From Lachnospiraceae bacterium (GTDB lineage: Bacteria; Bacillota; Clostridia; Lachnospirales; Lachnospiraceae), in NCBI GenBank assembly GCA_017394885.1, contig JAFPWO010000010.1, positions 152,010 to 216,009 on the forward strand: a stretch of DNA of 64,000 bases, read 5' to 3'. The notes beneath the pieces were generated by a model that was not told the DNA's origin, searched no databases, and saw only the letters and a program-made list of their open reading frames with translations. Within the stretch, counting starts at the first letter, position 1; every line of letters begins with the position of its first letter. Below are positions 1-25,249 of this stretch, one piece after another. The position numbers and the translations under genes were made by a program.

Positions 1-401
1 TGCACGGCGTGATCATGCGCTTCCTTCTTGCTCATGCCCTGATGGACCATAAACGGCTCGGAAAGCTGCCTGTCCACGGAGAAGACGGGGTTCAGACTCG
101 TCATGGGTTCCTGGAAGATAACGGAGATCTCGTTGCCGCGGATATGATACATATCCTTCAGCGACAGCTTGGTCAGATCGCCGTAGCCTTCCATCAGGAT
201 CTCGCCGTCCGCGATATAGCCGTTGCCGTCCAGCAGCTGCAGGATACTCATGGCCGAGACGGACTTGCCGGAACCGGATTCCCCCACGATACCGATCGTT
301 TTGCCGGACTCGAGCGTGTACGACACGTCGTTCACGGCCTTGACGATCCCCTTCTTTGTCTTAAAGAAGGTATGAAGATTTTTAACCTCTAATAACGGCA
401 T
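1..401 (-). CDS. Opp/Dpp-type peptide ABC transporter ATP-binding protein (OppD-like), N-terminal part only; gene runs off the left edge
   Basis: Absent from the ORF track because there is no stop in the window. Reverse-strand translation from ATG 401..399 gives MPLLEVKNLHTFFKTKKGIVKAVNDVSYTLESGKTIGIVGESGSGKSVSAMSILQLL... with Walker A GESGSGKS. An SD (taaggagga) lies just upstream. The start is 13 nt after the permease stop. Confidence 0.9.
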   Translation of the reverse strand, partial: MPLLEVKNLHTFFKTKKGIVKAVNDVSYTLESGKTIGIVGESGSGKSVSAMSILQLLDGNGYIADGEILMEGYGDLTKLSLKDMYHIRGNEISVIFQEPMTSLNPVFSVDRQLSEPFMVHQGMSKKEAHDHAV

Positions 402-414
402 CTTTCATTCCTCC

Positions 415-2376
415 TTATTTATCATTCGTAGACTTCGGGTCCATAACGTCGCGGAGCGTATCGCCGATGGTATTGATACACACCGTGGTCAGAACCAGGA
501 TCGCCGAGGTGAAGATCCACTGCCACGGGAAGTTGATCGCGGCAGTCGCATTGGACGCACGGCTTAACATGTTGCCCCAGCTGGGCTGCGGGTAGTTGAC
601 GCCGAAGCCGAGGAAGGACAGCGTTGTTTCTGTCTGCATGGAGGCGGCAAAGCTTAAGGTCATGTTGACCAGAATAACGGAGATGATATTCGGCAGGATG
701 TGCTTGAAGGCGATGCGGCCTTCCTTCACGCCCATGGCCTGTGCAGCCGTTACGTATTCGCTTTCACGGGCGACCAGGATCTGCGCACGGGTGATCCGCG
801 CGAAGCCGGGCCAGCCCAGGATACCGAGGATGACCATGATCATGAACAGTCTTTCACTCGTTGACAGGTTGACCTGCGAAAGCAGCGAGGACATGATCAG
901 CATGAACGGGATCAGCGGGATGGAGCCGAACACTTCGGCTACACGCATGATCACGATATCGACCCAGCCGCCGAAGTAACCGGAGATCAGGCCCAGGGAA
1001 ACGCCGATCAGGATCTCGATGATAACCGCGATCGCGCCGACCGTCATGGTCACGGCGCCGCCGGCGATAACACGCTGCAGGATATCCGCACCGGATTCAT
1101 CCGTTCCGAATACATGGGATTTCAGGCCCCAGGTATCCAGCAGGTTGCCGTTCTCGTCGATCACATAGTTCTGGAAGGCGCCGGCAAAGACTTTGCTCAC
1201 GCCGGAAAGTTCCGTCGGGGCTTCTGCCTGGCGGTAATGGTCCCCGCCGAAGGAATACACATGTCCGTGGTTCGTAAGGCAGGTGAAGTGATACGTCCCG
1301 GCTTCCACGTCGATCACGTATTCCCCTTCCGCAAACTCCGGTACATTGACCACGTCCTTCGGGAAGTCGCCGACCAGACCCATCGTGCCGTCGTCCAGCA
1401 GGATACAGATACTGCTCGAGGTGGCTGTTAAGGAGACGATCTTCCGCTTGTTCAGGAACTGGGTGATCTTCTTGCCTTCGCCGCCGATCTCGGTACGGAC
1501 CGTATTGTAGAGGTTCTTCACGCCGGTCACGATGCTGGACTGCTTCTTATCCAGCGCGACCACGTAGTTCAGGGTAAAGTCCACATCCTGCATGCCCGTG
1601 CGGCTGACAAATTTATCCAGATTCGCGTAGGTCTGCTTGTTGCCCCAGACGTGCAGCGTACCGTCGTCCATCAGCAGGGCGGAGGCCTGATAGCCGGCCG
1701 CCAGCTTCTTGACGTGCGACACGTCGATACCGCCGTCCCGGATCTCTTCCGGCACCGGGATCAGGTTCGGGTTTTCCAGGATCGCATCGGTAACGGCATA
1801 CTGGGCGAAACGGTTGTTGCCCCAGCCGAGGAGCCGGCCGTCTTCCGTAATGACCACCACGTGGTCCACGCCGGCAGCGATATAGGCGATCTTGGTGTTC
1901 TGGATCTCCTCCGGGATGTGGCTGACGTCCAGACCGGTCGCACCCATCTTTGTGGCGCCCCAGATATAGACCTTGCCGTCTTTGCTTAAACCGACGGAGA
2001 AGGAGCCGTAGCTGTCGATCTGCTTGATATTGTTCTTCAGTTCTTTCGGCACCGACATGAGCGTCAGCGTCGGCGGCATATCCTTCTGCGTGACCTCGGT
2101 GTAGGCGTCAAAATACTTTCCCATCAGCTTGGTCTTCGGGATGATGAAGACCAGCAGGAACATAAACAGGACCAGGAAAACAGAAAAGACCGCGAACTTT
2201 CTTTCCAAAAAGCGCTGAAAGATCTGCCGGCCGGGGCTGACGATCAGTTCGGAGTCGTCCGGCTGGCCGCTGGCTTCCTTTGCTTCCTTTTCCCGCATCT
2301 TCTCTTCATACTTCGGACCCATGAACCAGCGCATAAACCAGCGACCGATTTTGTGAAAAACGCTTTCTTTCTTCAT
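415..2376 (-). CDS. OppC/DppC-family ABC permease carrying a ~330-aa RCC1-like beta-propeller insertion in the first extracytoplasmic loop
   Basis: 653-aa ORF with ATG 2376 and an AAAGGAG SD. It has an N-terminal TM helix (FAVFSVFLVLFMFLLVFII). RCC1-type blade motifs follow: GKVYIWGATKMG, IAAGVDHVVVI, GRLLGWGNNRFAQ, GTLHVWGNKQ, VEAGTYHFTCL, GHVYSFGGDHYRQ. The canonical OppC core then begins at HVFGTDESGADILQRV and ends in the multi-TM permease domain. Confidence 0.85.
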   Translation of the reverse strand: MKKESVFHKIGRWFMRWFMGPKYEEKMREKEAKEASGQPDDSELIVSPGRQIFQRFLERKFAVFSVFLVLFMFLLVFIIPKTKLMGKYFDAYTEVTQKDMPPTLTLMSVPKELKNNIKQIDSYGSFSVGLSKDGKVYIWGATKMGATGLDVSHIPEEIQNTKIAYIAAGVDHVVVITEDGRLLGWGNNRFAQYAVTDAILENPNLIPVPEEIRDGGIDVSHVKKLAAGYQASALLMDDGTLHVWGNKQTYANLDKFVSRTGMQDVDFTLNYVVALDKKQSSIVTGVKNLYNTVRTEIGGEGKKITQFLNKRKIVSLTATSSSICILLDDGTMGLVGDFPKDVVNVPEFAEGEYVIDVEAGTYHFTCLTNHGHVYSFGGDHYRQAEAPTELSGVSKVFAGAFQNYVIDENGNLLDTWGLKSHVFGTDESGADILQRVIAGGAVTMTVGAIAVIIEILIGVSLGLISGYFGGWVDIVIMRVAEVFGSIPLIPFMLIMSSLLSQVNLSTSERLFMIMVILGILGWPGFARITRAQILVARESEYVTAAQAMGVKEGRIAFKHILPNIISVILVNMTLSFAASMQTETTLSFLGFGVNYPQPSWGNMLSRASNATAAINFPWQWIFTSAILVLTTVCINTIGDTLRDVMDPKSTNDK

Positions 2377-2391
2377 CGTTTCGATCTCCTT

Positions 2392-3435
2392 TTACTTGCT
2401 GATACGGACACGCGGGTCAACGATCCCGTAGCACAGGTCGATGACCAGGTTGCTGAACAGGGCGATGAACGTATACACCACTTCAAGGAACATGATCAGG
2501 TCGTAGTCAGCCTGCCGCACGGAGTTGTAGAACAGCAGGCCCATGCCCTTGAACCCGAACATGGTCTCCATAATGATACCGCCGGAAATAATGCCGAAGA
2601 AACCGCCGACGATGATCGCGACCATCGGGACCAGGGCGTTTCTCCAGGCATGGGAATAGACCACGACCTTTTCCGTCAGGCCCTTGGCGCGGGCGGTCCG
2701 GATGCAGTCGAGGCTTAATGCGTCGATCATGGAAGCACGGGCGATACGGGTGATGGACGCCAGGCTGGCAAAGACCAGGCAGATACACGGGAGAGCAACG
2801 TGCTTGAGAACATCCCAGACGTTTGCCCACCCGGTATAACTGGTGCCGGGCGTCTTCATGCCGCTGACCGGGAACCAATGCAGGATCGAGCAGAACAGAA
2901 CGATGAACAGTATATAAATAATGAAGTTTGGCGTTGAAAAACCGATAAGAGAGACCAGCTGCGTTCCCTTATCGAAACGACTGCCTTTCTTGACCGCGCA
3001 TTTAATGCCAAGCGGGATCGTCACACCCAAAATCGCTATCTCCGAGATAGCCCCGATGATCATGGTGTTTCGTATGAACGGGCCGATCAGTTCCACGACC
3101 GGCAGGTTATATTCATACGATTTTCCGAAATTTCCTTGCAGGATTCCGTTGACCTTTCCGTCATAAAAAGGATATACGCCCCACCAGCGCAGATACAGGA
3201 TCATCACGTCATCCGTATCCGTGCCGTACAGCCGCTGATATTTCAGGAGCAGTTCCTGCATTTTCGTTTCTCTCTCTTCCGGCGACAGCGTGTTTTTCAG
3301 CTGCTGAAGTTCAGCTTTTGCATCCGTATAGGCACGGTTGGCCGGCATCAGCTGATAGAGACAGAAAAGGAGGAATGTTAAAAGAAGAAAAACTGCTGCC
3401 ATATACAGCAATCTCTTCACGATATATCTTCCCAT
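2392..3435 (-). CDS. OppB/DppB-family ABC transporter permease
   Basis: 347-aa ORF with ATG at 3435. It has an N-terminal TM, a long first loop, and a binding-protein-dependent permease core (RTARAKGLTEKVVVYSHAWRNALVP EAA-type loop). Its stop is 15 nt before the next permease start. Confidence 0.9.
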   Translation of the reverse strand: MGRYIVKRLLYMAAVFLLLTFLLFCLYQLMPANRAYTDAKAELQQLKNTLSPEERETKMQELLLKYQRLYGTDTDDVMILYLRWWGVYPFYDGKVNGILQGNFGKSYEYNLPVVELIGPFIRNTMIIGAISEIAILGVTIPLGIKCAVKKGSRFDKGTQLVSLIGFSTPNFIIYILFIVLFCSILHWFPVSGMKTPGTSYTGWANVWDVLKHVALPCICLVFASLASITRIARASMIDALSLDCIRTARAKGLTEKVVVYSHAWRNALVPMVAIIVGGFFGIISGGIIMETMFGFKGMGLLFYNSVRQADYDLIMFLEVVYTFIALFSNLVIDLCYGIVDPRVRISK

Positions 3436-3524
3436 AATAACCCCTTACCGTACAATTGTTTTGCATTGAATCTTCGGGCCGTCTGCCGGGTCCGGCAGTT
3501 CACGTTCGCGGCCCCTGATAGAGG

Positions 3525-3562
3525 AAAGCCGCACCGGGCACCGAGGCACCCGATGCGGCTTC
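3525..3562 (-). terminator. Intercistronic GC-rich hairpin between the SBP gene and the permease genes (partial terminator or mRNA-stabilising stem-loop)
   Basis: The minus strand reads GAAGCCGCATCGGGTGCC-TCGG-TGCCCGGTGCGGCTTT followed by cctct. The stem is long and near-perfect, but the U-tract is weak. It lies 25 nt after the SBP stop. Confidence 0.5.
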
Positions 3563-3586
3563 CCATGCACTGAGAATATCAGAACA

Positions 3587-5959
3587 TTAGTCGTTCAGCC
3601 AGCAGATGTCCGCATAGTCCTTGATGTAGTACGCGCTGTATTCGTCATACATGGAAGGATCGATGGTCATATTCCAGCTGTAGTCGTAAGCGGCGCTGCT
3701 GAAACCGGTCGCGAAGTTGAATGCGCAGTACATAGGCGTGCCGGCATAGTAGCCGTAAACAGCCTGCTGATACAGTTCATCCAGCATCGGAGCGAAGTCA
3801 CCAAGCTGGTTGTAAACCTTCATGCCGGCAGTTTCGACGTTCGAATTCTCACGGAAGCCGGTCTGCAGCAGGTCGGTAAATTCATTCGGCGTGGTGCCGA
3901 ACCAGTTGATAACTAACGGCATGTAGTAGTCGTCGCCAACCTTGGTGGTGGTGTAAGCGCCATCCATGGACTTGTAGTTGATGATATTGTCGTTGGCCAG
4001 CTCGCCAGGGATCTTCTTGTAGCGGATGCCTTCGGTGTAGTCGTTGCCTTCTGCATCATAGATCCAGCCGCCTTCTTCCAGCACTTCGATCGCGCTGTCG
4101 GCGGAGGTAGCATACGCATCCAGTTCCATACCCTGTTCCATAGCCGCCTTGTACATCCAGCCGCCGGTGTAGTAAGGGCCGTCCACAACACCGCCGTAGC
4201 CGCCGGTGAACTTCTTCGCAAATTCAGGACGGTTCATGCAGTACGCGATAGCGGCACGAACTTCACGGAACTGAACGGGGCCGTAGTCGGCACGGAAGCC
4301 CAGCTTGCCGTAGCCAGCACGGCTGTAGTGGGTGTATACGTACTTGTCGGGAGCTTCTTCAGCAGCCTTCAGCGCGTCATCCGTGGCAGCGCCGCCGGTG
4401 ATGGCAGCGATAACATCCAGGCCGCCCGCCTTGAAGTCTTCCAGCTGAGTAGCATCAACGACCTTGCGGTAGGTGATCTTTTCGATGCTCGGGGTCTTGC
4501 CGTCGAAGTTGCCCTTGAATTCAGGGTTCTTTACGAGAACGGCAGTGTTGTCGGTAGTATCGAAAGATTCGACCATGTAAGGGCCGGTGAAAGGCCACTT
4601 GGTCCAGTTGTCAGCAGAGGTATCCTGCGCAGCGAACTTGATCTGCGCGGCGTGAGTGTAGCTGTCGCCTTCCTTCTCATAGAATTCGTCGGACAGATAT
4701 ACGCCGTTGCCGTCATCCTTGATCTCGATGCCTTCGCCCAGCCACATCTCGCTGTAGTAAGGAGTGAAGCCGGCGTAGGTGATGTCATAGAAGTAAGGAA
4801 TGTAGTCGGCAGGAATGGTTACGGAGAAGGTGTACTCGTCAAGCAGGCGCAGGCCGGCAACTTCCTTCGCTCCTTCTTTGGAGTCCGGGCCGGTGTACTT
4901 CACGAAGTCAGGGCCGCCGACGACGGTCTGCATCTTCAGGGCACGGCCGGAAGCTTCCGCTCCGACAGGGGAGTTCAGAGCCAGGGAGAAGCTCAGGTAA
5001 TCCTTCGCAGTGATCGGTTCGCCGTTGCTGAACTTCAGATCATCATAAATGGTGATCGTGAAGGTCTTGGTGCCGTCTTCGTTGATAACTTCGTCGTGTT
5101 CCTTCACAACGGTGTCATTCCACTGATAGCCGCCTTCCTTGTTGGAAGAAACGGTTTCAAGGCCGTTGACCAGGTCGCCAACGTCGCTGTCGGAAGCGCC
5201 AGGGCTGGACTTGCCGAAGGTCGGATAACGGAACTGGCCGGACAGATCGGTGGAGTTGCCGACGATGATGTCGTTGTCAGCCTTCTCGGAAGTCCATTCG
5301 ATCAGAGCGCTGCAGACATCCCAGTAAGGGTTGGTCGGGAACTCTTCCACGCCCTTGATCTGTGCATTGTACAGATCGTAGTATTCGTTGCTGTACAGCG
5401 GAACTTCGGGCAGCAGGTAGTTCCAACGGGTGATGTAGAGTCTCCACCAGGCAGCGTATACATCCTCGGCAGTCGGATATTCATCCGTGGTGTCGATGTT
5501 GTATACCATAGCCATGGTCAGGAAGTCGAGGCCCAGCTCGTGCAGCGTGCCATCTTCCATCTCGATGTAGGCAAATCCGGTTTCGGGATCTTCCAGAACA
5601 TCGCCGATGGTGATGCCGGCACCGGCTACTTCGTACAGGGACTGATAGTCTTTGCCGTACTCAAGGTTCGCCAGCTTCAGGACTTCGAATTCAGGGTTCT
5701 CGACGGGCTCAGGGAACTCCGGAACATCGGGTTCGGTGGGCTCTTCGGTGGGTTCCTCAGTCGGCTCTTCGGTAGGAGCTTCGGTCGGAGCTTCGGTAGG
5801 AGCTTCGGTCGGAGCTGCAGTCGGCTGTTCGTCAGCTTTCGTGGTATCTGCCTCGGTCGGAGCCTCGGTCGGAGCTGCGGTCGTATTGGTGTTGCCGCCG
5901 CAGGCAGCCAGACTCAGAACCATGGCAAGTGCCAGGAAAAATGCCAGGAACTTTTTCAT
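3587..5959 (-). CDS. Family-5 (peptide/nickel type) extracellular solute-binding lipoprotein, unusually long (790 aa)
   Basis: Signal peptide plus lipobox MKKFLAFFLALAMVLSLAACGG. An APTEAPTEAPTEEPTEEPTE linker follows. The SBP_bac_5-like body includes FTITIYDDLKFSNGEPITAKDYLSF. AAGGAGG SD. It is the first gene of the operon that also contains the two permeases and the ATPase. Confidence 0.9.
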   Translation of the reverse strand: MKKFLAFFLALAMVLSLAACGGNTNTTAAPTEAPTEADTTKADEQPTAAPTEAPTEAPTEAPTEEPTEEPTEEPTEPDVPEFPEPVENPEFEVLKLANLEYGKDYQSLYEVAGAGITIGDVLEDPETGFAYIEMEDGTLHELGLDFLTMAMVYNIDTTDEYPTAEDVYAAWWRLYITRWNYLLPEVPLYSNEYYDLYNAQIKGVEEFPTNPYWDVCSALIEWTSEKADNDIIVGNSTDLSGQFRYPTFGKSSPGASDSDVGDLVNGLETVSSNKEGGYQWNDTVVKEHDEVINEDGTKTFTITIYDDLKFSNGEPITAKDYLSFSLALNSPVGAEASGRALKMQTVVGGPDFVKYTGPDSKEGAKEVAGLRLLDEYTFSVTIPADYIPYFYDITYAGFTPYYSEMWLGEGIEIKDDGNGVYLSDEFYEKEGDSYTHAAQIKFAAQDTSADNWTKWPFTGPYMVESFDTTDNTAVLVKNPEFKGNFDGKTPSIEKITYRKVVDATQLEDFKAGGLDVIAAITGGAATDDALKAAEEAPDKYVYTHYSRAGYGKLGFRADYGPVQFREVRAAIAYCMNRPEFAKKFTGGYGGVVDGPYYTGGWMYKAAMEQGMELDAYATSADSAIEVLEEGGWIYDAEGNDYTEGIRYKKIPGELANDNIINYKSMDGAYTTTKVGDDYYMPLVINWFGTTPNEFTDLLQTGFRENSNVETAGMKVYNQLGDFAPMLDELYQQAVYGYYAGTPMYCAFNFATGFSSAAYDYSWNMTIDPSMYDEYSAYYIKDYADICWLND
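5730..5830 (-). repeat. Imperfect tandem 12-nt repeats encoding the (A/E)PTE linker of the SBP
   Basis: The plus strand shows reiterated ggagcttcggt(c/a) and gg(g/c)tcttcggtgg units. The translation is APTEAPTEAPTEEPTEEPTEEPTE. Confidence 0.7.
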
Positions 5960-6021
5960 AGTTTGTCCTCCTTAATTGATTACATCGGAGTCGCAAGCGA
6001 ACCCGATGTTATTGCCTTGTA

Positions 6022-6050
6022 ATTATAGAATTATGCATAGGCAATGTCAA
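6022..6050 (-). promoter_or_regulatory. Consensus sigma-70/SigA-type promoter for the atypical peptide-transporter operon
   Basis: The minus strand reads TTGACA (6050..6045), a 17-nt spacer, then TATAAT (6027..6022). This lies ~60 nt upstream of the SBP start codon. Confidence 0.7.
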
Positions 6051-11299: not shown

Positions 11300-14200
11300 A
11301 TGAAAAAGAACCATTCCATTAATCGCTTTACAGCGCTGCTGCTGGCTTTCGTGCTGTTTCTTACGGCCTGCGGGCCGGAGAAGCCGACAGCCTATACCTC
11401 CCCGGAAAGCGCCGCAGAGACGACTGCGGCGGCGCAGGATCCCACGGAATCTTCCGACTGGCGCACCGAAGCCCGCGGCCTCTCCGACGAGCCGCTGGAA
11501 CTCCCCGAATGGCCGTACCACAGCCCGGCACTGGACTTTTCCCCCGCGGAGGGCATCCGCGTCACGGCCGAAGCCGGATCCCTGTACGATGACACGGAGA
11601 TCACCCTGGCCCCCGTCATGGAAGACAGCGAGCGCCTGATAAAGATCGCCGAAGACTTCGAGGAGTACGGCGAGCCGCTGATCGGGGCCTGGGAGGTCCA
11701 CGCCGGCCTGGAGGAGGATGAGCACCTGCCCGGCGAATATACCGTCTCCATCGACCTTTCCACGCTGGACCTGGACGAATCCCTCTGGCCTGCCGTGCGT
11801 CTCTACCGCCTCACGGACGGCGGGAAACTGAGCGCGTACAATACGAAACTGGAGGGGAGCATCCTCACGTATTCCAGCGATCAGAACAGCATCACCATGG
11901 CCAGTGTCGCCATCTGCGTGGTCGTCAGCCTCGCGCTGGGCCTGCCGCTCTGTTACGGGATCGAGAATGCGAAAGCAAACTGGTATTACTGGGATGGGAC
12001 CGGGGCGTCCTATCATTACGGAACGACGGACTACGGGAATTATACGGTCAAATGGTCCATGAAGGACGTGGATCCGAAGCAGCAGGAAAAGAACGACCGG
12101 ATGCTGGAGATCGCAAAGAAATACATACCGGAGGCTGAAAAAGACTACGAGCAGGAGATAAAAGACCGCGCAGATGAGGGCGTCCTGTACCGCATGTTCA
12201 ATAAAAACAGGTCCGTGGCGGAGTATCTGAAGGACTATCTGGTACGGGACGAGGAATATCAGAAGATCGCCGCCTCCCTGGAAACGCCGGAACTGATCGC
12301 CGCGGTGGCCAAGGCCATCGATCAGGCCTACGCTTACCTGGGCGGCGTGGTCTACGCGCGCATGCCGAAGGATGACCTGACCTTCCGTTTAAAGCGCACG
12401 GACGGCACGGAAGAGGAAGATACCTACGGCAATTCGGTGGCCGCCATGCTCTCCGACAGCTATATCGAGATCAACGTGGACAAGATCATCGGCATTCTGA
12501 AAGGAGACGCCGAGGGGGAAAAAGCCCGCGACAATATGCTCCTCACGGTCACCCACGAGCTCTTCCACATCTGCCAGGAGCGCTATCATTCCCGCTATCT
12601 CACGGACAGCATCCGTTTTGACGAGATGACGGCGGTGTTTCTGGAGGCGGACGCGAAGAAATATTACCAGGAAGAAAAGATCATCAAGACGGATCCGGAG
12701 CTGACCGCCACCAATTACTGGGGGACGCTGCGCCTGCCGATCGACGTCCTCCCCTGGCTCGGCAGTGAGACAGTCGACTCTGAGCGGCACATCGACAGTC
12801 TGGTCATACGGCATCAGGGATACCTTTTATCCGAATTTGCGAGGTATCTCCGGGAGAAAACCGGCATCCAGGCGGACGGTGTCGATATCTATCGCTGCCG
12901 GAGTTATTATACAACGCCGGTGACGTCGAAGCCGCTGATGGCGGCGTTCCACCTGTCCGAAGTGACGTTCGACAAGCTGTTCCGCCAGTTCTGCCTGGAC
13001 CACAAAGCGGATTTTGCCCGCAATTTCCCCGAGGACGAGGCACGGAAAGAGTACAAGATCTATCCCCGGACCCCGCTGCAGAAGGATACAGGCTCGCACG
13101 TGAGTCTTTCCACCGACGGCAGTTATACCGCCGGCATCCGCTGCTTTACCATGTATGAGGAAAAGCCGCTGCCGCTGCTCATGGTCATGGACAAAGACCT
13201 GGCCGCCCAGCATCCGGAAGCAAACCTGGTGCCGGTAGAAAAGTACATATCCACCCGCAGCGGTGCGTATCTGCCCGGGCCGGAAAAATGGGCCGGCTCG
13301 TCCCTGAGCATGCGTATGTTCCTGGAAGTGTACGGCAGGCTGGGCCCGAACACCGGGACCACAGCCGGCTACACGGTATGGCCGATGGACGCCCCGGACG
13401 AGCCGAAGCTCGAATCCGCGGACGGCGCCTTGGCCGTACAGCTGCCGGAGCCCCGCGGCGCCGCCAAAGAGGGCCTGCTGGACGGCGTCATCCTGAAGAT
13501 CGACTCCTCGGACGGCAAAAAGACCGAGAAGGAATACAGCGCGGCCCTGTTCGGGAAGAAGATCACGATCCCCCTGCATGAACTGCTGGAGGATGCGACG
13601 GAGCAGGCGGAGCTCACGGTGAGCTTTGCGGAATTCGTCTACAGCACGAAAGACAAGGCCTGCCCGGGTTGCTGGTCAAAGGAAGTAAAGATCTCCGTCC
13701 GCAGGGAACAGAAAGGCACGTCCTACCAGTACAACTCCACCACCATGGTGAACCTGGCGGGGGAAATGGCACATCCGGCCCTGCGGGACGCACTTGAGCA
13801 TTCCACGCTCTATCTGGGCGAAGACGGGTCCTTTACCATCACCGGGTCCGGACGCGCCGTGCGGGAGCCGGAGGACGAGAACGACACCGTGGAGGGCTCC
13901 GCCGCCGCGGAGTTTACCATCACCGGCACCTGGGACGCAAAAAAAGGCGAGGGGACCGCGGCGATCCGCGGCACCATCACCTATAAAGAAACCTACAACG
14001 GCCTCAGCGAAAAGGAAGAAGTCAACCACGTGACCGACCGCGACGGGAAGCATCTGACGCTGACCACAGTCAGCCGGATCTTCACGAAGGAAGTCACGGA
14101 TTTCAGCTATGCTTTTTCCGGCACCGGCACCGTGAAAGCAGTGAATCAGGATTTGTACAAGGGCATCGACGGCCTGATCCTGCGCCTGAGCAGCGACTGG

Positions 14201-14407
14201 ACCCGGAGCGGCAAAAATGAATTCTGGCGGTGGACCAGCCTCGACCGCACCGGGGATCCCGAAAACGAGGTCCATACCGCGACGGAGCCCTTTCTCGTCA
14301 GGACCGACGATAAGAAAGACCCCTGGGAAGAAGGCTGGGAGATCTGCTGGACCATCGGCAAACAGGACCCCATCCTGCACTTCGGCACCCCGGTCATGGG
14401 CTATTGA
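11300..14407 (+). CDS. Large (1035 aa) lipoprotein with an HExxH motif; putative secreted or anchored metallopeptidase-like protein, function unknown
   Basis: Lipobox MKKNHSINRFTALLLAFVLFLTACG. HELFH is encoded at 12554..12568 in the context LLTVTHELFHICQERYH. AAAGGGG SD. The long ORF has normal coding periodicity. Confidence 0.8.
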   Translation: MKKNHSINRFTALLLAFVLFLTACGPEKPTAYTSPESAAETTAAAQDPTESSDWRTEARGLSDEPLELPEWPYHSPALDFSPAEGIRVTAEAGSLYDDTEITLAPVMEDSERLIKIAEDFEEYGEPLIGAWEVHAGLEEDEHLPGEYTVSIDLSTLDLDESLWPAVRLYRLTDGGKLSAYNTKLEGSILTYSSDQNSITMASVAICVVVSLALGLPLCYGIENAKANWYYWDGTGASYHYGTTDYGNYTVKWSMKDVDPKQQEKNDRMLEIAKKYIPEAEKDYEQEIKDRADEGVLYRMFNKNRSVAEYLKDYLVRDEEYQKIAASLETPELIAAVAKAIDQAYAYLGGVVYARMPKDDLTFRLKRTDGTEEEDTYGNSVAAMLSDSYIEINVDKIIGILKGDAEGEKARDNMLLTVTHELFHICQERYHSRYLTDSIRFDEMTAVFLEADAKKYYQEEKIIKTDPELTATNYWGTLRLPIDVLPWLGSETVDSERHIDSLVIRHQGYLLSEFARYLREKTGIQADGVDIYRCRSYYTTPVTSKPLMAAFHLSEVTFDKLFRQFCLDHKADFARNFPEDEARKEYKIYPRTPLQKDTGSHVSLSTDGSYTAGIRCFTMYEEKPLPLLMVMDKDLAAQHPEANLVPVEKYISTRSGAYLPGPEKWAGSSLSMRMFLEVYGRLGPNTGTTAGYTVWPMDAPDEPKLESADGALAVQLPEPRGAAKEGLLDGVILKIDSSDGKKTEKEYSAALFGKKITIPLHELLEDATEQAELTVSFAEFVYSTKDKACPGCWSKEVKISVRREQKGTSYQYNSTTMVNLAGEMAHPALRDALEHSTLYLGEDGSFTITGSGRAVREPEDENDTVEGSAAAEFTITGTWDAKKGEGTAAIRGTITYKETYNGLSEKEEVNHVTDRDGKHLTLTTVSRIFTKEVTDFSYAFSGTGTVKAVNQDLYKGIDGLILRLSSDWTRSGKNEFWRWTSLDRTGDPENEVHTATEPFLVRTDDKKDPWEEGWEICWTIGKQDPILHFGTPVMGY

Positions 14408-14426: not shown

Positions 14427-15173
14427 TCACGGCAGCCGGGCGGCGATGGCGCGGGCGGTCTGCGCGATCTGCTCTTCCCGGGTGATAGCCGGCTCCCCAT
14501 CTCCTTTCTGCGCGCCGTACGCGCCGAAATACGCATGGCAGCCGCCGTCAATTACGATCTCTCCGGTATCCGCGGGGAGATTCTTTTTATATCCGTTATA
14601 TTTGTCACGGTTCAGGACGCCGTCCTCGCTGCCGTAAATACTCAGGACAGCCAGGCCGCTTTCCGACAGGTCCGCCGCCGAGTACGCGGCCAGCAGCACG
14701 AGGGCGTCAAATCCGTCGGCATGCTTTCCCAGGTACGAGGCCGCCATCGCGCCGCCGAGCGAATGCCCGGCCAGGATCCAGTCCTCAATCTGCGGATACT
14801 CCTCCGGGATACCCGCTGCCCTGCCCATACCCAGCACCGCGAGGTTGAGCGGCATTTTGAGCAGCACGCAGAGGATGCCCTCCTGCGAAAGCGCGGCCAT
14901 GAGCGGGGCATAGGCCGTATACTCCACCTTCCCGCCCGGGTAAAAAATCAGCCCGGCCTGCGGATGATCGGGGATAAAGTTGATCCGGCCGTTCTCCTGC
15001 TCCACCGTCACGCCCGGGATCTCACCCGTAAGCAGTGCCTGCACGGACGGATCGGCGTGATAATAATCTCCCGCATACACGGCGGTCCCGATCACCAGGA
15101 TCAACAGCACCGCGGGCAAGATCCATAAGCCGAGGCGCCGTTTTTTCGGCGCCTCCTGTGCATGATTCTTCAT
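14427..15173 (-). CDS. Membrane-anchored alpha/beta-fold hydrolase
   Basis: N-terminal TM (LGLWILPAVLLILVIGTAVYA). Nucleophile elbow GHSLGG. Convergent with the lipoprotein gene across a 19-nt gap. Confidence 0.8.
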   Translation of the reverse strand: MKNHAQEAPKKRRLGLWILPAVLLILVIGTAVYAGDYYHADPSVQALLTGEIPGVTVEQENGRINFIPDHPQAGLIFYPGGKVEYTAYAPLMAALSQEGILCVLLKMPLNLAVLGMGRAAGIPEEYPQIEDWILAGHSLGGAMAASYLGKHADGFDALVLLAAYSAADLSESGLAVLSIYGSEDGVLNRDKYNGYKKNLPADTGEIVIDGGCHAYFGAYGAQKGDGEPAITREEQIAQTARAIAARLP

Positions 15174-15947: not shown

Positions 15948-17138
15948 TCAGTTCTTATACAGCATCGCCAGCCCGCCGTGGGAAGTCTCCCGGTACTTTT
16001 CGTGGAGGTCTTTCCCGGTCTGGTACATGGTCGCCACGACCTCGTCGAAGGAAATTTTCCGCGTCGCGTAGAGAAAGCGCGAAAGATTGACCGCGGTCAT
16101 GGCGCGCATCGCGCCGACCGCGTTGCGCTCGATGCAGGGGATCTGCACCAGCCCGTGCACCGGATCGCAGGTCAGGCCCAGGCTGTGCTCCATGGCGCTT
16201 TCGGCCGCGTATTCGATCTGCGGCGCGCTCAGCTTATAGAGCGCGGCTAGCGCGCCGGCCGCCATGGAGGAAGCGCTCCCGATCTCCGCCTGGCAGCCGC
16301 ATTCCGCGCCGGAGATGCTCGCATTGGTGCGGATCACATTGCCGATCAGCCCGCCCACCGCCAGCGCGTCCACGATCTCCTCTTCCGGAAAGCCCTTATC
16401 GTGCTGCATATAATACAGCAGCGAAGGCAGAACCCCGCAGCTGCCGCAGGTCGGCGCCGTGACAACCACGTTTTCGCAGGCATTTTCCTCGCTGACCGCG
16501 TAGGCGTAGGCCGCGATCTTGCGGTTCATGGTCACGTCCGGCGGCTCATTGTAGCAGCGTTTTTCCAGAAGGCTCTTGGCCCGGCGGGGGAGATTTAAGC
16601 CCCCGGGCAGAATGCCCTCCGCCTGCAGGCCGCGCTCCACGCTCTCCTGCATGGCGGCCCAGATCTTGGTCAGATAGGTCCTGCCGTCCTCGCCCTCCGC
16701 GCGCCAGATGAAGTCCGTGAGGGAGACGTTTTCCAGATAGCAGTCATACAGCATCTCGCCGAAATTCTTCTGCGGATAGGTCTCCGCGTCCTCCGGCGGG
16801 TCGCCCTCGATGCGGATGGAGCCGCCGCCGATGCTGAAGATCCGCAGCTGTCCGATCTTCTCTCCCTCCCGGAAGGCTTCGAAGAGCATCGTATTGGGGT
16901 GCGGGAGATCCGTGGTCTCAAAATCATAATGCAGGCCGCATTCCGGCAGCAACCGGCGGATGGCCTTGCCGGTGCCGTGTCCCTCGCCGGTATGCGCGAG
17001 CGATCCGAACAGCGTGACTTCAAAATGATCCGCCTGCGGGAAACGTTCCCGGCAGCGCTTCGCCGCGCGGAACGGGCCGACGCTGTGTGAGCTGGACGGC
17101 CCCTGCCCGATCCGGTAAACACTTTTAATGCTTCTCAT
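15948..17138 (-). CDS. sdaA: L-serine ammonia-lyase (iron-sulfur dependent L-serine dehydratase), single-chain form
   Basis: MRSIKSVYRIGQGPSSSHSVGPFRAAK matches the serine dehydratase N-terminal motif. The alpha-domain cysteine motif APTCGSCGVLP is present. Strong GGAGGAAGGAG SD. Confidence 0.9.
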   Translation of the reverse strand: MRSIKSVYRIGQGPSSSHSVGPFRAAKRCRERFPQADHFEVTLFGSLAHTGEGHGTGKAIRRLLPECGLHYDFETTDLPHPNTMLFEAFREGEKIGQLRIFSIGGGSIRIEGDPPEDAETYPQKNFGEMLYDCYLENVSLTDFIWRAEGEDGRTYLTKIWAAMQESVERGLQAEGILPGGLNLPRRAKSLLEKRCYNEPPDVTMNRKIAAYAYAVSEENACENVVVTAPTCGSCGVLPSLLYYMQHDKGFPEEEIVDALAVGGLIGNVIRTNASISGAECGCQAEIGSASSMAAGALAALYKLSAPQIEYAAESAMEHSLGLTCDPVHGLVQIPCIERNAVGAMRAMTAVNLSRFLYATRKISFDEVVATMYQTGKDLHEKYRETSHGGLAMLYKN

Positions 17139-17159
17139 CGTCTCTCCTTCCTCCGAAAA

Positions 17160-17210
17160 AAACTATCAAAAACGGATGCCCTTCCTCTGTCGGGGAGGAA
17201 AGACATCCGT
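17160..17210 (-). terminator. Rho-independent terminator after nfnB
   Basis: The minus strand reads ACGGATGTCTTTCCTC-cccgaca-GAGGAAGGGCATCCGT followed by TTTTTGATAGTTTTTTT. Confidence 0.8.
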
Positions 17211-17223
17211 CTGCGTTTTTGGT

Positions 17224-18633
17224 TTATTTTGCCTGCAGGTATTCGTCGATGGCCTTCGCGGCTACCTTGCCGGCGCCCATGGCGGAGATGACCGTCGCGG
17301 CTCCCGTCACGGCGTCGCCGCCGGCGTAGATGGCTTCCCGGGAGGTGAGGCCCTCTTCATTGACGATGATGCCGCCGTGGCTGTTCACTTCCAGGCCTTC
17401 GGTCGTGGACTTGATCAGCGGGTTCGGGCTCGTCCCGATCGCGATGACCACGGTGTCCACATCCAGCACGTACTCGGAGCCGGGGATGGCGACCGGACGG
17501 CGGCGGCCTTTTTCATCCGGCTCGCCCAGTTCCATCCGGATCACCTTCATGCCGACCACGAAGCCGTTCTTCTCATCGCGCGGATTCTCCGGATTGTTGT
17601 ACCCCAGGATCTCCACCGGGTTGCGCAGCAGCTGGAAGTCGATGCCTTCCTCTACGGCGTGCTCCACTTCCTCGCGTCTGGCCGGCAGCTCTTCCATGGA
17701 GCGGCGGTAGACGATATAGACCTTCTCGGCCCCGAGGCGCAGCGCGGTGCGGGCCGCGTCCATCGCGACGTTGCCGCCGCCGACGACTGCCACTTTCCCG
17801 CCCTTCATGATCGGGGTGTCCGGATCGTCGAGATACGCCTTCATCAGGTTGCTGCGAGTCAGGAATTCATTCGCGCTGTACACGCCCTTGAAGGACTCGC
17901 CGGGGATATTCATAAAGTTCGGCAGGCCGGCGCCGGAGCCGATGAACACGGCTTCGTAGCCCATCTCGAACAGCTCGTCGATGGTCAGGGTCTTGCCGAT
18001 GACCACGTTCGTCTGCACGTCCACGCCCAGTTCCTTTAAGGTCTCGACTTCCTTTGCCACGATGGCCTTCGGCAGACGGAACTCGGGGATGCCGTACACC
18101 AGCACGCCGCCGGCGGTGTGCAGGGCTTCAAATACGCTGACCGCATAGCCCTTTTTGGCCAGATCGCCCGCGCAGGTAAGGCCGGAAGGGCCGGAACCCA
18201 CGATAGCCACACGGTGGCCGTTGGCCTCCGGGGCCTTGGCCTTCTCGGTGGCGTTGGCGTTGTGCCAGTCGGCCGCGAAGCGCTCCAGACGGCCGATGCC
18301 GACCGGCTCGAAGCGGATGCCGAGGGTACATTTGGCTTCGCACTGCGTCTCCTGCGGGCACACGCGGCCGCAGACGGCGGGCAGGGAGGAGCTGGTATTG
18401 ATGACCTGGTAGGCGCCTTCGAAATCGCCGGTCTTCATCTTCGCGATGAAATCCGGGATCGCGATATTCACGGGGCAGCCTTCCACACAGGGACGGTTCT
18501 TGCAGTTTAAGCACCGGCTCGCTTCGGCCAGCGCGATCTCCTCGGTATAGCCGAGGGCGACTTCGTTAAAATTGTGGGCACGGACTTCCGGCGCCTGAGA
18601 CGGCATTTCATGCTTCTTCGGATCGATCGCCAT
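17224..18633 (-). CDS. nfnB: NADH-dependent reduced ferredoxin:NADP+ oxidoreductase large subunit (GltD-like, NfnB/SudA type)
   Basis: N-terminal Fe-S cysteine motifs (CLNCKNRPCVEGCPV). Two dinucleotide-binding motifs (VAIVGSGPSGLTCA, VAVVGGGNVAMD). It is paired with a PyrK-like small subunit 4 nt upstream. Confidence 0.85.
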   Translation of the reverse strand: MAIDPKKHEMPSQAPEVRAHNFNEVALGYTEEIALAEASRCLNCKNRPCVEGCPVNIAIPDFIAKMKTGDFEGAYQVINTSSSLPAVCGRVCPQETQCEAKCTLGIRFEPVGIGRLERFAADWHNANATEKAKAPEANGHRVAIVGSGPSGLTCAGDLAKKGYAVSVFEALHTAGGVLVYGIPEFRLPKAIVAKEVETLKELGVDVQTNVVIGKTLTIDELFEMGYEAVFIGSGAGLPNFMNIPGESFKGVYSANEFLTRSNLMKAYLDDPDTPIMKGGKVAVVGGGNVAMDAARTALRLGAEKVYIVYRRSMEELPARREEVEHAVEEGIDFQLLRNPVEILGYNNPENPRDEKNGFVVGMKVIRMELGEPDEKGRRRPVAIPGSEYVLDVDTVVIAIGTSPNPLIKSTTEGLEVNSHGGIIVNEEGLTSREAIYAGGDAVTGAATVISAMGAGKVAAKAIDEYLQAK

Positions 18634-18637
18634 CTTC

Positions 18638-19492
18638 TTAACCCTCCTTCAGCAGATTGCAGTCCTTGGCTCTTTCCAGAGCGTGCTGCTCATAGGGGAT
18701 ATACATCCGGCCGCGGGACATCGCTTCGTCAAAATCGACTTCGTAGCCGTCAAATTCGGGGCCGTCCACACAGGCGAATTTCGTGACTTTCTTCCCGTCC
18801 TGATTCAGGGTCAGGCGGCAGCCGCCGCACATCCCCGTACCGTCGATCATGATCGGGTTCATGGACACGCGCACCGGCACGCCGAACGGCTTGCAGGTAA
18901 GGGTCGTGAACTTCATCATGACGCCAGGGCCAATCGCCAGCACCAGATCGAAGCGCTCGCCGGCCTCCAGCATTTCCTTAAGCGGCACCGTGACGTTGCC
19001 GTGGCGGGCATAGGAGCCGTCGTCCGTCATCACGATGAGCCGGTCCGAACAGGCACGGAATTCATCTTCCAGGATCAGAAGGTCCACGCTGCGGAAGCCG
19101 ATGATGCTCGTGACCTCGGCGCCGAGACGGTGAAATTCCTCCGCCGCGGGCAGCGCGATCGCGCAGCCGACGCCGCCGCCGACGATGCAGATCTTCTTAA
19201 TACCTTCCGTTTCGGTCGGTCTCCCGAGCGGGCCCACAAAGTCCGCCAGATATTCGCCTTCCTCCTTCTCGTTGAGGCGGTAGGTCGTGCCGCCGACGAT
19301 CTGGAAAATGATCTTGACGGTCCCGGCTTCCGGATCGGTCCCGGCTACGGTCAGCGGGATCCGTTCGCCGTCCGCATCCACGCGCAGAATGATAAACTGA
19401 CCGGGTTTCGCCTTCCGGGCCACCAGCGGCGCTTCGATCTGCATCTGCGTCACCGTCGGGTTCAGAGGCTTTTTACTTACGATTTTGTACAT
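18638..19492 (-). CDS. nfnA: NfnA/SudB-type small subunit (PyrK-like FAD/[2Fe-2S] ferredoxin-NADP reductase-like protein)
   Basis: MYKIVSKKPLNPTVTQMQIEAP..., GQFIILR FAD-binding motif, and C-terminal cysteine cluster GTGMCGGCR...CVDGP. ATG 19492 has a GAAGGAG SD. The track ORF begins 13 codons upstream without an SD. Confidence 0.85.
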   Translation of the reverse strand: MYKIVSKKPLNPTVTQMQIEAPLVARKAKPGQFIILRVDADGERIPLTVAGTDPEAGTVKIIFQIVGGTTYRLNEKEEGEYLADFVGPLGRPTETEGIKKICIVGGGVGCAIALPAAEEFHRLGAEVTSIIGFRSVDLLILEDEFRACSDRLIVMTDDGSYARHGNVTVPLKEMLEAGERFDLVLAIGPGVMMKFTTLTCKPFGVPVRVSMNPIMIDGTGMCGGCRLTLNQDGKKVTKFACVDGPEFDGYEVDFDEAMSRGRMYIPYEQHALERAKDCNLLKEG

Positions 19493-19552
19493 TGTCTGCT
19501 CCTTCACAAGTATTTGTTCCTGAGGAATCACTGCGGCCTGGCCGCTGTATGC

Positions 19553-20557
19553 TTACCGGATGCGCTCCGGATAGCCGATCTTCTTCTGGACCTTCCGCAA
19601 GGTCTTGTTCGCGTAGTAGGCGGCCTTTTCGGCGTTGTTTTTGATGATGCCGTCCACGTAGGCCTTTTCCTTCGTGAGCCGCTCGTATTCTGCCTGCAGC
19701 GGGCTGAGCGCGGCGACCACAGCCTCTCCCACCGCTTCTTTAAAGACGCCGTAGCCCTGTCCGTCAAATTCCCGGAGGACCTCGTCCACGGTCTTTCCGG
19801 TCACGGCTCGGTAGATATCGATCAGGTTTTTGATGCCCGGCTGCTCGTCGCGGTAGGCGATCTGCCCCTCGGAATCCGTGACCGCCCGCTTAAACTTGCG
19901 GCGGATGTCATCCGGCTTATCCAGAAGGAAGATGCTCGCGTTCGGGTTTTCGTCGGACTTGCTCATCTTCTTTAACGGATCCTGCAGGCTCATGATGCGC
20001 GCGCCGACCTTGCCCAGATACGGTTCGGGTACGGTAAAAAGGTCGCCGTAGATATTGTTGATGCGGATCGCCAGATCGCGCGTGAGCTCCAGGTGCTGGA
20101 GCTGATCGTTGCCCACCGGCACCACGTCTGACTGAAACAGCAGGATATCCGCGGCCATCAGCACCGGATAGGTAAAGAGGCCCGCGTTGATATTGTCCGC
20201 GTGTTTGGCGGACTTATCCTTAAACTGCGTCATGCGCTGCAGTTCGCCCATATAGGTAAAGCATCCCAGGATCCAGGCCAGCTCCGCGTGCGCGGACACG
20301 TGAGACTGATAATAAATGCAGTTCTTTTCGGGATCGAGCCCGGCTGCGATATAGAGCATGAGCAGGCTCCGGGCCCGCTTTCTCAGCTCCGCCGGATCCT
20401 GGCGCACCGTAATGGAATGCTCGTCCACCACACAGTAAAAACATTCGTATTCTTCGTTCAGGCTGACCCAGTTTTTCAGCGCGCCCAGATAGTTTCCGAG
20501 CGTGATCGTCCCGGTCGCCTGCATGCCGCTGAAGAGCGTTTTCTTTCCGTCAATCAT
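19553..20557 (-). CDS. trpS: Tryptophan--tRNA ligase
   Basis: SGMQATGTITLGNYLGALKNW (HIGH-region equivalent) and KMSKS are present. The 334-aa length is typical. AGGAGG SD. Confidence 0.95.
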   Translation of the reverse strand: MIDGKKTLFSGMQATGTITLGNYLGALKNWVSLNEEYECFYCVVDEHSITVRQDPAELRKRARSLLMLYIAAGLDPEKNCIYYQSHVSAHAELAWILGCFTYMGELQRMTQFKDKSAKHADNINAGLFTYPVLMAADILLFQSDVVPVGNDQLQHLELTRDLAIRINNIYGDLFTVPEPYLGKVGARIMSLQDPLKKMSKSDENPNASIFLLDKPDDIRRKFKRAVTDSEGQIAYRDEQPGIKNLIDIYRAVTGKTVDEVLREFDGQGYGVFKEAVGEAVVAALSPLQAEYERLTKEKAYVDGIIKNNAEKAAYYANKTLRKVQKKIGYPERIR

Positions 20558-20572
20558 TGTCAGCCTCCTAAG

Positions 20573-21298
20573 TTATCCCGCGCCGCCCGCCATTGCCATC
20601 CGGACGTGCAGCAGGATCAGAATATGCAGCGGATAAAAGATGTAGAACAGGTATTTGTTCACACTGCTGCCGCGCTCTCCATTATAGAAAGAAAGCGGAA
20701 TAATTGCAAGCAGTGCAAACAGCTGGATCCGCGGCTGCTGCCACATCAGCGCCATAAGCAGCGCCAGCAGGAAGGGATAATACAGGGAATCCTTAAACAC
20801 TGTCCGCCAGTGGTACATGGCAAAGATCAGGGCGATCCCCTTCCAGCCGTAGTCAAAGTTCAGGTAATGCGCCGCCGCGCCGCACACGATAGCGCCGGCC
20901 AGCCCCAGCAGCGGCCAGGGCGTGTTCTCTCCCTTTTCGCGCGCCTTTTTGTAAATAATGATGCCCAGAAGCCCCGTGCTTAAGGTAAACAGGATGTTCT
21001 GATTCCCGAATTCCAGCCAGGTCCTGTGAAAAAACATATCGTAGGGGATCTCGGAGAGGAAGGCAAAGATCAGCAGCCGCAGCAGATACCGCCAGACATT
21101 GCGGCTGCGCTCGGCGCCTTCCGCGATCAGGAAGGCGTAGATCGGAAAGGCCAGGCGGCCGATCGCGCGCATCGGATACCACCACGGGTTCCGGTAGGGG
21201 ATGAACCCGGCGGCTACATGATCGATCACCATCGTGACGAGGGCAAGGAGTTTCAGCCAGTGCCCGGTCAGTCTTTTTTTCAGGGTGAAGCCTTCCAT
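20573..21298 (-). CDS. traX: TraX-family membrane protein
   Basis: WLKLLALVTMVIDHVA..., GRLAFPIYAFLIAEG and FLSEIPYDMFF are typical TraX motifs. The protein is polytopic. Confidence 0.85.
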   Translation of the reverse strand: MEGFTLKKRLTGHWLKLLALVTMVIDHVAAGFIPYRNPWWYPMRAIGRLAFPIYAFLIAEGAERSRNVWRYLLRLLIFAFLSEIPYDMFFHRTWLEFGNQNILFTLSTGLLGIIIYKKAREKGENTPWPLLGLAGAIVCGAAAHYLNFDYGWKGIALIFAMYHWRTVFKDSLYYPFLLALLMALMWQQPRIQLFALLAIIPLSFYNGERGSSVNKYLFYIFYPLHILILLHVRMAMAGGAG

Positions 21299-21354
21299 CG
21301 TTGTTCCTCTGCCGTCTACTATACCCGATTCCGCTTAAAAAGAAAAGGCTTCCG

Positions 21355-21398
21355 GTTAAAAAAATAAGGTGACAATGGGGCAAAGCCCCACTGTCACC
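21355..21398 (-). terminator. Rho-independent terminator after the OppA-like SBP gene
   Basis: The minus strand reads GGTGACAGTGGGGCTTTGCCCCATTGTCACC followed by TTATTTTTTT. Confidence 0.85.
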
Positions 21399-21430
21399 TC
21401 GTGATGAGACCCGACTATCGGTTCAGCGCC

Positions 21431-25244: not shown

Positions 25245-25249
25245 GGCGG

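Follow-up and report, generated by a model that had tools for sequence, protein, structure and literature searches.

Why would a peptide-type importer carry a beta-propeller inside one of its permeases, and what could the propeller do there? The question is raised by a 64-kb stretch of DNA from an uncultured Clostridia bacterium (labelled 'Lachnospiraceae bacterium' at NCBI; contig JAFPWO010000010.1; the whole stretch is called the window below). The minus strand of its positions 1..6050 holds the promoter-proximal part of an Opp/Dpp-family ATP-binding cassette (ABC) importer operon, in the order promoter, substrate-binding protein (SBP), hairpin, OppB, OppC and the start of OppD. A preliminary description of the DNA had placed OppC at 415..2376 (653 residues), OppB at 2392..3435 (347 residues) and the SBP at 3587..5959 (790 residues), all on the minus strand, and we found these open reading frames (ORFs) exactly there. 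It had also proposed that RCC1-type blades fill an outer loop of OppC, between its first two transmembrane segments (TM1 and TM2). The parts of this permease are the following.

415..2376, minus strand: OppC-type permease with an inserted propeller, 653 residues (Pfam, NCBIfam, homologues, AlphaFold2 model, Foldseek, phmmer)
2140..2196, minus strand: OppC TM1, residues 61-79 (hydropathy and charge count; aligns to TM1 of Escherichia coli OppC)
1117..2070, minus strand: predicted seven-bladed RCC1-like beta-propeller, residues ~103-420 (Pfam RCC1 and RCC1_2, AlphaFold2, Foldseek)
418..1116, minus strand: OppC core with the GTD motif, TM2-TM6 and the EAA coupling loop (phmmer to E. coli OppC; Foldseek to 8z21_B and 8j5q_C)

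Fold, position and distribution of the propeller

All six motifs quoted in the preliminary description (GKVYIWG, IAAGVDHVVVI, GRLLGWGNNRFAQ, GTLHVWGNKQ, VEAGTYHFTCL and GHVYSFGGDHYRQ) are present in the OppC translation, and the Pfam search returned strong RCC1 matches in the insert: RCC1_2 (PF13540) at E 1.8e-29 in four stretches, with 101 bits against a cutoff of 22, and RCC1 (PF00415) at E 1.6e-10, with 41.8 bits against a cutoff of 21.7. These scores lie far beyond chance. The whole-domain model RLD (PF25390) reached E 5e-33, yet with 115 bits it stayed below its cutoff of 150; the blades of the insert are shorter than those of eukaryotic RCC1-like domains (RLDs), as is also the case in BLIP-II. 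An AlphaFold2 model of OppC was built from 41 family sequences (mean predicted local distance difference test score, pLDDT, 79.8, and about 90 over residues 110-420). It contains seven triplets of long strands, starting from residues 117, 163, 222, 262, 313, 354 and 395, which correspond to seven blades, so that the RCC1-type blades of the preliminary description stand and their number, given as at least five, is sharpened to seven in the model. Foldseek against the PDB matched the insert with BLIP-II (TM-score 0.77, 21% identity), UVR8, the HERC2 RLDs, RPGR, RCC1 and the ACR4 ectodomain, with E values from 1e-14 to 1e-11 for BLIP-II, UVR8, HERC2, RPGR and RCC1. As modelled, the insert is a complete, closed seven-bladed RCC1-like propeller.

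The rest of the protein is an OppC permease. BPD_transp_1 (PF00528) spans residues 458-648 (E 2e-32), and Foldseek aligned the membrane part with OppC of E. coli (8z21_B), OppC of Mycobacterium tuberculosis (8j5q_C) and DppC. The match to OppC_N (PF12911) at residues 47-80 fell marginally short (23.8 bits against a cutoff of 23.9); four of five full-length homologues pass it at 30-41 bits, and the fifth, P0263, is marginally short as well (23.7 bits). In a phmmer comparison with solved structures, residues 420-649 aligned to residues 81-301 of E. coli OppC (E 6e-46) and the TM1 region (46-82) aligned weakly to residues 19-59; where E. coli OppC has a stretch of about 20 residues (~59 to 81) from TM1 to the GTD motif, the window protein has the propeller. 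GTD is invariant among the propeller-OppC homologues. The preliminary description had used the OppC of a second, ordinary Opp operon in the window (OppC2, 25250..26332) as an internal control, and the comparison was borne out. OppC2 has TM1 at residues 59-77 and GTD at 127, against TM1 at 61-79 and GTD at 424 in the propeller-containing protein (OppC1), which means that the loop from TM1 to GTD is short in the former (77 to 127) and long in the latter (79 to 424). Both proteins have six hydrophobic segments, and the N-terminal tail of OppC1 contains 14 Lys and Arg residues, as expected of a cytoplasmic end. Because the TM1-TM2 loop is extracytoplasmic, the propeller would project from the outer side of the membrane, next to the OppB/OppC surface that is capped by the SBP. 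With the E. coli OppC alignment, the six TM segments and the Lys/Arg-rich tail in agreement, homology and topology make it very probable that the propeller faces outside, near the SBP docking surface, as had been suggested. The same cytoplasmic tail carries a motif, RWFxRxFxG (residues 12-20, window 2317..2343, minus strand), ahead of the usual OppC_N region, and in the alignment of homologues R12, W13, R16 and G20 are nearly invariant.

The fusion recurs far beyond this genome. The identical 653-residue OppC is listed on 11 contigs, the longest of 425 kb (13 contigs in another reading), and the best 120 database homologues listed (647-664 residues, 69-84% identity) have both domain types in 120 of 120 cases; they bear generic labels such as 'ABC transporter permease subunit' and come from metagenome-assembled genomes (MAGs) of Lachnospiraceae, Clostridia or Firmicutes. 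The insert alone was searched against 1.84 billion representatives of 50%-identity clusters, and at least five further full-length fusions at 36-55% identity were confirmed with Pfam (P0241, P0263, P0284, P0290 and P0367). Species-representative genomes gave six fusion loci, including a Eubacteriales MAG, Clostridiales UBA7285 and a Bacilli MAG at 35-39% identity, and a metagenome scan with the insert alignment gave at least 423 relatives, 80 loci of which were retrieved from rumen, rabbit and human-gut assemblies. Altogether 86 fetched loci contain the fusion, and the operon order is constant wherever the contig is long enough. Hundreds of homologues with 618-728 residues keep the fusion, and the bacteria that encode them are Clostridia and Bacilli from the rumen and from the gut of rabbits and humans. 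The human-gut version of OppC (646 residues) falls in a 90%-identity cluster of 1,811 sequences, and 484 blocks of the collection contain precisely this sequence. The propeller-OppC design is thus widespread in gut and rumen bacteria and not unique to one genome.

This distribution also decides whether the ORF could be an artefact, either two genes in a decaying fusion or, a possibility raised in the preliminary description, a chimera of the assembly. An identical ORF on at least 11 contigs, a fusion that stays in frame with seven blades down to 35% identity, its recurrence in the homologues and the 86 loci, and the 484 blocks with the human-gut version rule a chimera out for practical purposes, and we give an artefact next to no probability. 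Nothing about the window ORF itself speaks for one, and the only point on that side is a database relative, P0253, which is truly chimeric. This protein (L141 175..1929) combines OppC_N, a propeller and three SLH domains and was considered as evidence for the outside location of the propeller; it was rejected, being an assembly chimera that is identical to the human-gut OppC as far as about residue 332 and continues as an unrelated SLH protein, on a 2.4-kb contig with 2x coverage.

The substrate-binding protein and the rest of the module

The partner SBP was described as oversized, with a long Pro/Thr/Glu linker. Its size stands (790 residues against 601 in the ordinary SBP of the window), and so does the linker, which is not special because the ordinary SBP has a similar one. 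Its features are the following.

3587..5959, minus strand: SBP lipoprotein, 790 residues, family 5 / cluster C, OppA-like, circularly permuted by alignment (PF00496 E 1e-32, residues 294-639)
5900..5959, minus strand: signal peptide with lipobox L-A-A-C, Cys20 (sequence; lipoprotein-type N-terminal NCBIfam matches)
5708..5890, minus strand: Pro/Thr/Glu-rich tether, about residues 24-84 (PT repeat PF04886, E 7e-6)
5285..5530, minus strand: putative relocated canonical C-terminal segment at the permutation junction, SBP residues 144-225 (BLASTP against the SBP of locus L004; PDB 9p48)

In BLASTP against the SBP of the distant locus L004, residues 230-781 of the window protein align to L004 residues 31-555 (E 1.6e-111), and residues 144-225 align to L004 residues 558-632 (E 5e-14), so that the order of the two segments is swapped. 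The motif RWN.LLPEVPLYSN.YY, terminal in canonical OppA-type SBPs, lies near the N-terminus of the window SBP, and the same swap was seen against PDB 9p48 ('peptide-binding protein OppA'), the nearest solved relative by sequence. As judged from these alignments, the window SBP has the OppA fold in circularly permuted form, with the junction near residues 144-230 (window 5272..5530). In the AlphaFold2 model of the SBP (pLDDT 80.7) the nearest structures by Foldseek were OppA of Lactococcus lactis, OppA of M. tuberculosis, NikA, and OppA and AppA of Bacillus subtilis, at TM-scores of just 0.4-0.5, as expected for a permuted, hinged protein. The extra length consists of the Pro/Thr/Glu tether, the C-terminal piece in its new place, some 60 residues (85-143) that fold as an N-terminal sub-domain, and small insertions, and it is mainly the circular permutation with its added N-terminal sub-domain that makes the protein long.

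The permuted order occurs in all loci with an OppC at least 48% identical to that of the window (about 55 loci) and in the best 120 database relatives listed out of 1,777 homologues of the window SBP (730-803 residues, named 'hypothetical protein' at NCBI). Four distant loci (OppC at 35-42% identity) have the canonical order, with SBPs of 632-705 residues. From this pattern the permutation is a later event in one clade, and it is the large SBP that always accompanies the propeller: in every surveyed locus the propeller-OppC is paired with an unusually large SBP of 632-837 residues, an association that the preliminary description had left to be surveyed. The two SBPs of the window are 53% identical over their first ~62 residues (5774..5959 and 23051..23236, both minus strand), and their mature domains are unrelated by BLAST. 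Since the ordinary SBP shares the signal peptide and the tether type, the long tether appears to be a habit of the organism and not a feature of the propeller system.

The operon leaves the window at its start, within OppD, the gene of which begins at 401. The genes beyond this edge were read from a metagenome contig with the same locus (L055, OppC 100% identical), where the operon encodes the SBP (790 residues), OppB (347), OppC (653), OppD (338), OppF (534) and then a 63-residue protein with one C-terminal TM. Operon order and gene lengths were scored by script over the fetched fusion loci, and every sufficiently complete surveyed locus contains the same module, namely SBP, OppB, OppC with the propeller, OppD, and OppF with an insert of its own. 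OppD has ~330-345 residues in all scored loci. OppF is long in every complete propeller-Opp locus (497-716 residues, against 319 in the ordinary OppF of the window), and compared to this ordinary OppF the insert comprises about 194 coiled-coil-like residues (~81-274) that follow the Walker A region and are rich in Glu, Lys, Ala and Leu. The insert sizes range from about 190 up to about 380 residues (OppF at L055 12958..14562, L004 12594..14165 and L006 12893..15043). When long-OppF operons lacking the propeller were sought, the best-listed 120 relatives all fell within one close clade (73-100% identity).

Both ATPases of L055 match PF00005 and PF08352 (oligo_HPY), with only the first 133 OppD codons lying inside the window, and all four Opp ATPases of the genome keep C-x5-C-x6-C-x17-C at the C-terminus (L055 11976..14562; window 23294..25253, minus strand), which is the spacing of the 4Fe-4S ligands in E. 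coli DppD/F (PMC12136057). The small protein found 3' of OppF in most loci (52-104 residues) has a polar head, a motif near LEK(N/G/H)D..AM and one C-terminal TM. It lies at 14571..14762 in L055 and is present in the distant loci L059 (11810..12007), L004 (14162..14371) and L006 (15003..15224). The script gave 'none' for it at 22 loci, of which tblastn matched 16, at least 15 of them in the expected position. No NCBIfam model matched it, and the gene tables give it no Pfam family.

The remaining features of the operon are the following.

6022..6050, minus strand: sigma-70-type promoter, TTGACA-17 nt-TATAAT, 12/12 consensus matches
5967..5973, minus strand: ribosome-binding site AAGGAGG, read directly, seven bases 5' of the SBP ATG
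3523..3564, minus strand: GC-rich hairpin of 19 bp, directly 3' of the SBP stop codon, without a clear U-tract
2392..3435, minus strand: OppB-type permease, 347 residues (BPD_transp_1, PF00528, E 8e-32; best NCBIfam model Opp4B, E 1e-63)
1..401, minus strand: OppD (ATPase), first ~133 codons (frame translation MPLLEVKNLHTFF...GESGSGKS), cut by the window edge

The perfect consensus promoter claimed upstream of the operon was thus located at 6050..6022 on the minus strand. Opp4C and Opp4B are the best NCBIfam models for OppC and OppB, and both matches are below the equivalog cutoffs. Hairpins 3' of oppA-type genes usually hold the SBP in excess over the permeases. The RNA around the present hairpin (3430-3595, minus strand, 166 nt) folds with a z-score of -3.9, and none of 200 shuffled sequences folded equally well; the hairpin probably either terminates part of the transcripts or stabilises the mRNA, and would in this way set the ratio of SBP to permease, with the SBP above the permeases. 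In a search for riboswitches or leader RNAs, no Rfam family matched at any place in the window. Elsewhere in the window, a 1,035-residue ORF at 11300..14407 (plus strand) has no Pfam match at E <= 1e-4 and is called as a gene in L055, a contig of the same genome.

What the propeller may do

Our preferred reading, a tentative one with somewhat under an even chance, is that the propeller serves SBP docking. As an outer platform for protein contacts, it would dock the very large tethered SBP onto the OppC-OppF half-transporter, orient it or keep it there, and complement the scoop motif of OppB, much as the MalF P2 loop holds MalE; the coiled-coil insert of OppF and the small TM protein would be co-inherited parts of the same specialised half-transporter. 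In the structure of E. coli DppABCDF both permeases have six TMs and are capped by the SBP on the periplasmic side. The scoop motif, formed by the periplasmic region between TM1 and TM2 of DppB, reaches into the cleft of the SBP, and the partner of DppC is DppF (PMC12136057). The equivalent loop of OppC holds the propeller here and the partner OppF holds the other insert, and because DppC pairs with DppF, the outer propeller and the inner coiled coil would belong to the same half of the transporter. The propeller sits in the OppC counterpart of the SBP-contacting DppB loop, which is why docking or retention in the manner of MalF P2 is favoured, and a propeller of ~45 Å beside a docked SBP of ~700 residues should touch it for steric reasons alone.

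Several results weigh against docking as the purpose of the propeller. A stand-alone relative, P0315, is 40% identical over the whole insert, occurs on three independent contigs (L142 989..2581, also L143 and L144) and lacks a permease domain; it has a Pro/Ala-rich tail, a Lys-rich stretch, one TM and the propeller. Its gene begins within the end of an M18 aminopeptidase gene, to which it is translationally coupled, and a 145-residue protein without a Pfam match follows. The Lys-rich tail and single TM of P0315 support the outside location of the propeller, and a propeller free of any permease suggests a binding function of its own beyond docking. The propeller is also the fastest-evolving part of the system (mean p-distance 0.42, compared to 0.28 for the OppC core, 0.35 for SBP, OppB and OppF, and 0.19 for OppD), which fits a binder facing the environment at least as well as a docking surface. 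In a mirror-tree (distance-matrix) test with 22 non-redundant loci all components correlated, and the partial correlations (propeller-SBP 0.56, propeller-OppB 0.63, membrane domain-SBP 0.45) gave no selective coupling of propeller and SBP. The conserved residues of the propeller comprise only the generic structural motif of RCC1 (GxxH/Q, DG, WG), with no candidate site among them. Finally, a link between the SBP permutation and the propeller was considered and rejected, as the distant propeller-OppC loci have canonical SBPs.

As for the substrate, membership of the family allows a peptide, nickel or opine type; the nearest relatives of the SBP bind peptides, and from family and neighbours oligopeptides seem the likelier choice. 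The flanking genes are not conserved between lineages, yet peptidases recur beside the operon, which favours peptides. In the human-gut lineage (L147 4232..5929 and 16975..21941) a PepF-like M3 peptidase lies directly upstream, and an SLH protein and a 1,852-residue S8/PA/Big_2 protease of cell-envelope type lie downstream, which is the layout of a complete proteolytic system. The P0103 locus has M48 upstream and an ordinary Opp operon followed by M32 downstream. Locus L059 is flanked by a trypsin/PDZ protease and S41. In L004 two ORFs, read by eye from the translations, look like a peptidase of amidohydrolase type (M20-like) and a serine hydrolase of the beta-lactamase family that has an SxxK motif. 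The other neighbours in the window are uninformative on the substrate. Directly downstream in L055 (14901..18358) are a BlaI-like repressor (Penicillinase_R) and a 1,029-residue M56 BlaR1-like sensor; as a functional clue they were rejected, since other lineages do not conserve them. Ordinary Opp operons adjoin the propeller-Opp operon in several genomes (L001 361..4455 and the P0103 locus) and lie 15 kb from it in the window, and this proximity suggests that the two systems are not redundant.

Among the other readings is the capture of substrate. The propeller would bind extracellular peptides, proteins or another polymer, concentrate them at the mouth of the transporter and hand them to the SBP or the translocation cavity. 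A membrane-anchored stand-alone homologue coupled to an aminopeptidase gene, the fastest rate of evolution among all parts, and a cell-envelope S8 protease adjoining the operon in the human-gut lineage all agree with it, as do the top-scoring matches of the insert among the cluster representatives, which are giant multi-RCC1 proteins of a kind described as extracellular in gut Oscillospiraceae (bioRxiv 10.1101/2023.11.21.568195). However, a complete SBP, the normal device for capture, is always present, no pocket residues are conserved beyond the structural motif of RCC1, and peptide binding by a bacterial RCC1-like propeller is, as far as we know, without precedent, so that we regard capture as unlikely, if worth keeping in mind. 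That the propeller anchors or positions the transporter through an envelope partner (a cell-envelope protease, a penicillin-binding or BlaR-type protein, or the wall) is rather improbable. The best structural match, BLIP-II (TM-score 0.77), is a secreted bacterial propeller that binds an envelope enzyme, and the SLH protein and S8 protease in the human-gut lineage and the BlaI/BlaR1-like pair in the genome of the window would offer such partners. These neighbours vary by lineage, though, and none is conserved with the operon; BLIP-II may rank first through its short blades, few secreted bacterial propellers of the kind appear to have been solved, and the sole protein that joins the propeller to SLH domains is the chimeric P0253.

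Slimmer still is the chance that the OppC-OppF half, with additions on both sides of the membrane, is a transceptor, a sensing or regulated unit in which binding outside gates the ATPase or signals inward. OppC and OppF, which carry the two inserts, are paired subunits. The small TM protein with LEK(N/G/H)D..AM follows OppF in most loci including distant ones, and the RWFxRxFxG motif of the OppC tail is conserved, all of which would suit such a unit. Against it, no regulator gene is conserved nearby, and inserts in the nucleotide-binding domain also occur in Mycoplasma OppD and OppF, with no known role in sensing. A bolder reading, to which we likewise assign a low probability, is that the system is the first member of an unrecognised Opp sub-class ('propeller-Opp'), in which the OppC-OppF half has acquired the outer propeller, the inner coiled coil and the small TM partner. 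The propeller would then act as a second receptor, independent of the SBP, that captures large peptides or proteins, or else a partner (a cell-envelope protease, for example), and would gate transport. If this is true, substrate delivery or regulation would work in a way that is not known in type I ABC importers.

Relation to known systems and significance

Opp-family importers are textbook systems, and their known outer parts are short loops and a free or tethered SBP. The present operon shares with canonical OppABCDF/DppABCDF (E. coli 8z21 and 8z1y; M. tuberculosis OppABCD 8j5q) the five subunits, OppB and OppC with six TMs, the EAA loop, the GTD motif after the first outer loop, the oligo_HPY tails, the C-x5-C-x6-C-x17-C cysteines and a cluster C SBP. 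It differs in having a propeller of ~320 residues in place of an OppC loop of ~25-50 residues, an insert of ~190 residues in OppF and a small TM protein, and in that the SBPs of the family have 632-837 residues and those of the window's clade appear permuted. MalF P2 of MalFGK2-MalE is likewise a folded extracytoplasmic domain within the permease of a type I importer; it is Ig-like, about 180 residues long, lies between TM3 and TM4, and contacts the SBP during the cycle. The likeness is one of function only, as MalF belongs to another permease family and P2 is not homologous to the propeller, for which contact with the SBP is our inference. OpuA and GlnPQ also have an extra extracytoplasmic domain covalently on the translocator, which in these two is the SBP itself, whereas the window system keeps a separate SBP and the fused domain is a propeller.

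With regard to the fold, BLIP-II of Streptomyces (PDB 1jtd, 3qi0) is, like the insert as modelled, a bacterial seven-bladed RCC1-like propeller with short blades on the outside of the cell and the best structural match, but it is a free soluble binder of class A beta-lactamases, and nothing indicates the same target for the insert. RCC1, UVR8, the HERC2 RLDs and the ectodomain of ACR4 ('CRINKLY') have the same repeat family and seven-bladed fold, and ACR4 also displays its propeller outside the cell on a membrane protein; in contrast to the eukaryotic RCC1-like domains, the insert has no Ran or chromatin context and scores 115 bits against the 150 of PF25390. A role in guanine-nucleotide exchange or on chromatin is not to be expected of a bacterial domain outside the cytoplasm. 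Mycoplasma Opp (JCVI-syn MMSYN1_0167 and 0168) has large inserts in the nucleotide-binding domain of OppF/OppD, and the long OppF of the propeller system matches the Mycoplasma OppD and OppF models over its length. The Mycoplasma OppC model NF043080 has 307 positions and no room for a propeller, and we do not claim homology of the Mycoplasma inserts with that of the window OppF.

The statement in the preliminary description that no characterised ABC importer has this architecture agrees with a full-text literature search, in which no paper on a propeller within the permease of an ABC importer was found. The genes bear generic labels in the databases. To our knowledge a beta-propeller built into a permease is undescribed for the Opp family, and MalF P2 is the sole well-studied accessory domain of the kind known to us. 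What is new is the propeller in the permease loop together with an insert in the ATPase, a small TM partner and, in this clade, an SBP of permuted order.

A co-inherited set of propeller, ATPase insert, small protein and permuted SBP would extend the repertoire of accessory domains in importers, and the SBP would be a case of circular permutation that arose naturally in the OppA fold. Bacterial RCC1-like propellers gain a concrete, testable context. Clostridia of the rumen and gut commonly have the module, often beside peptidases and a cell-envelope protease, and these abundant, little-studied gut anaerobes may have in it one of their main ways of obtaining peptides.

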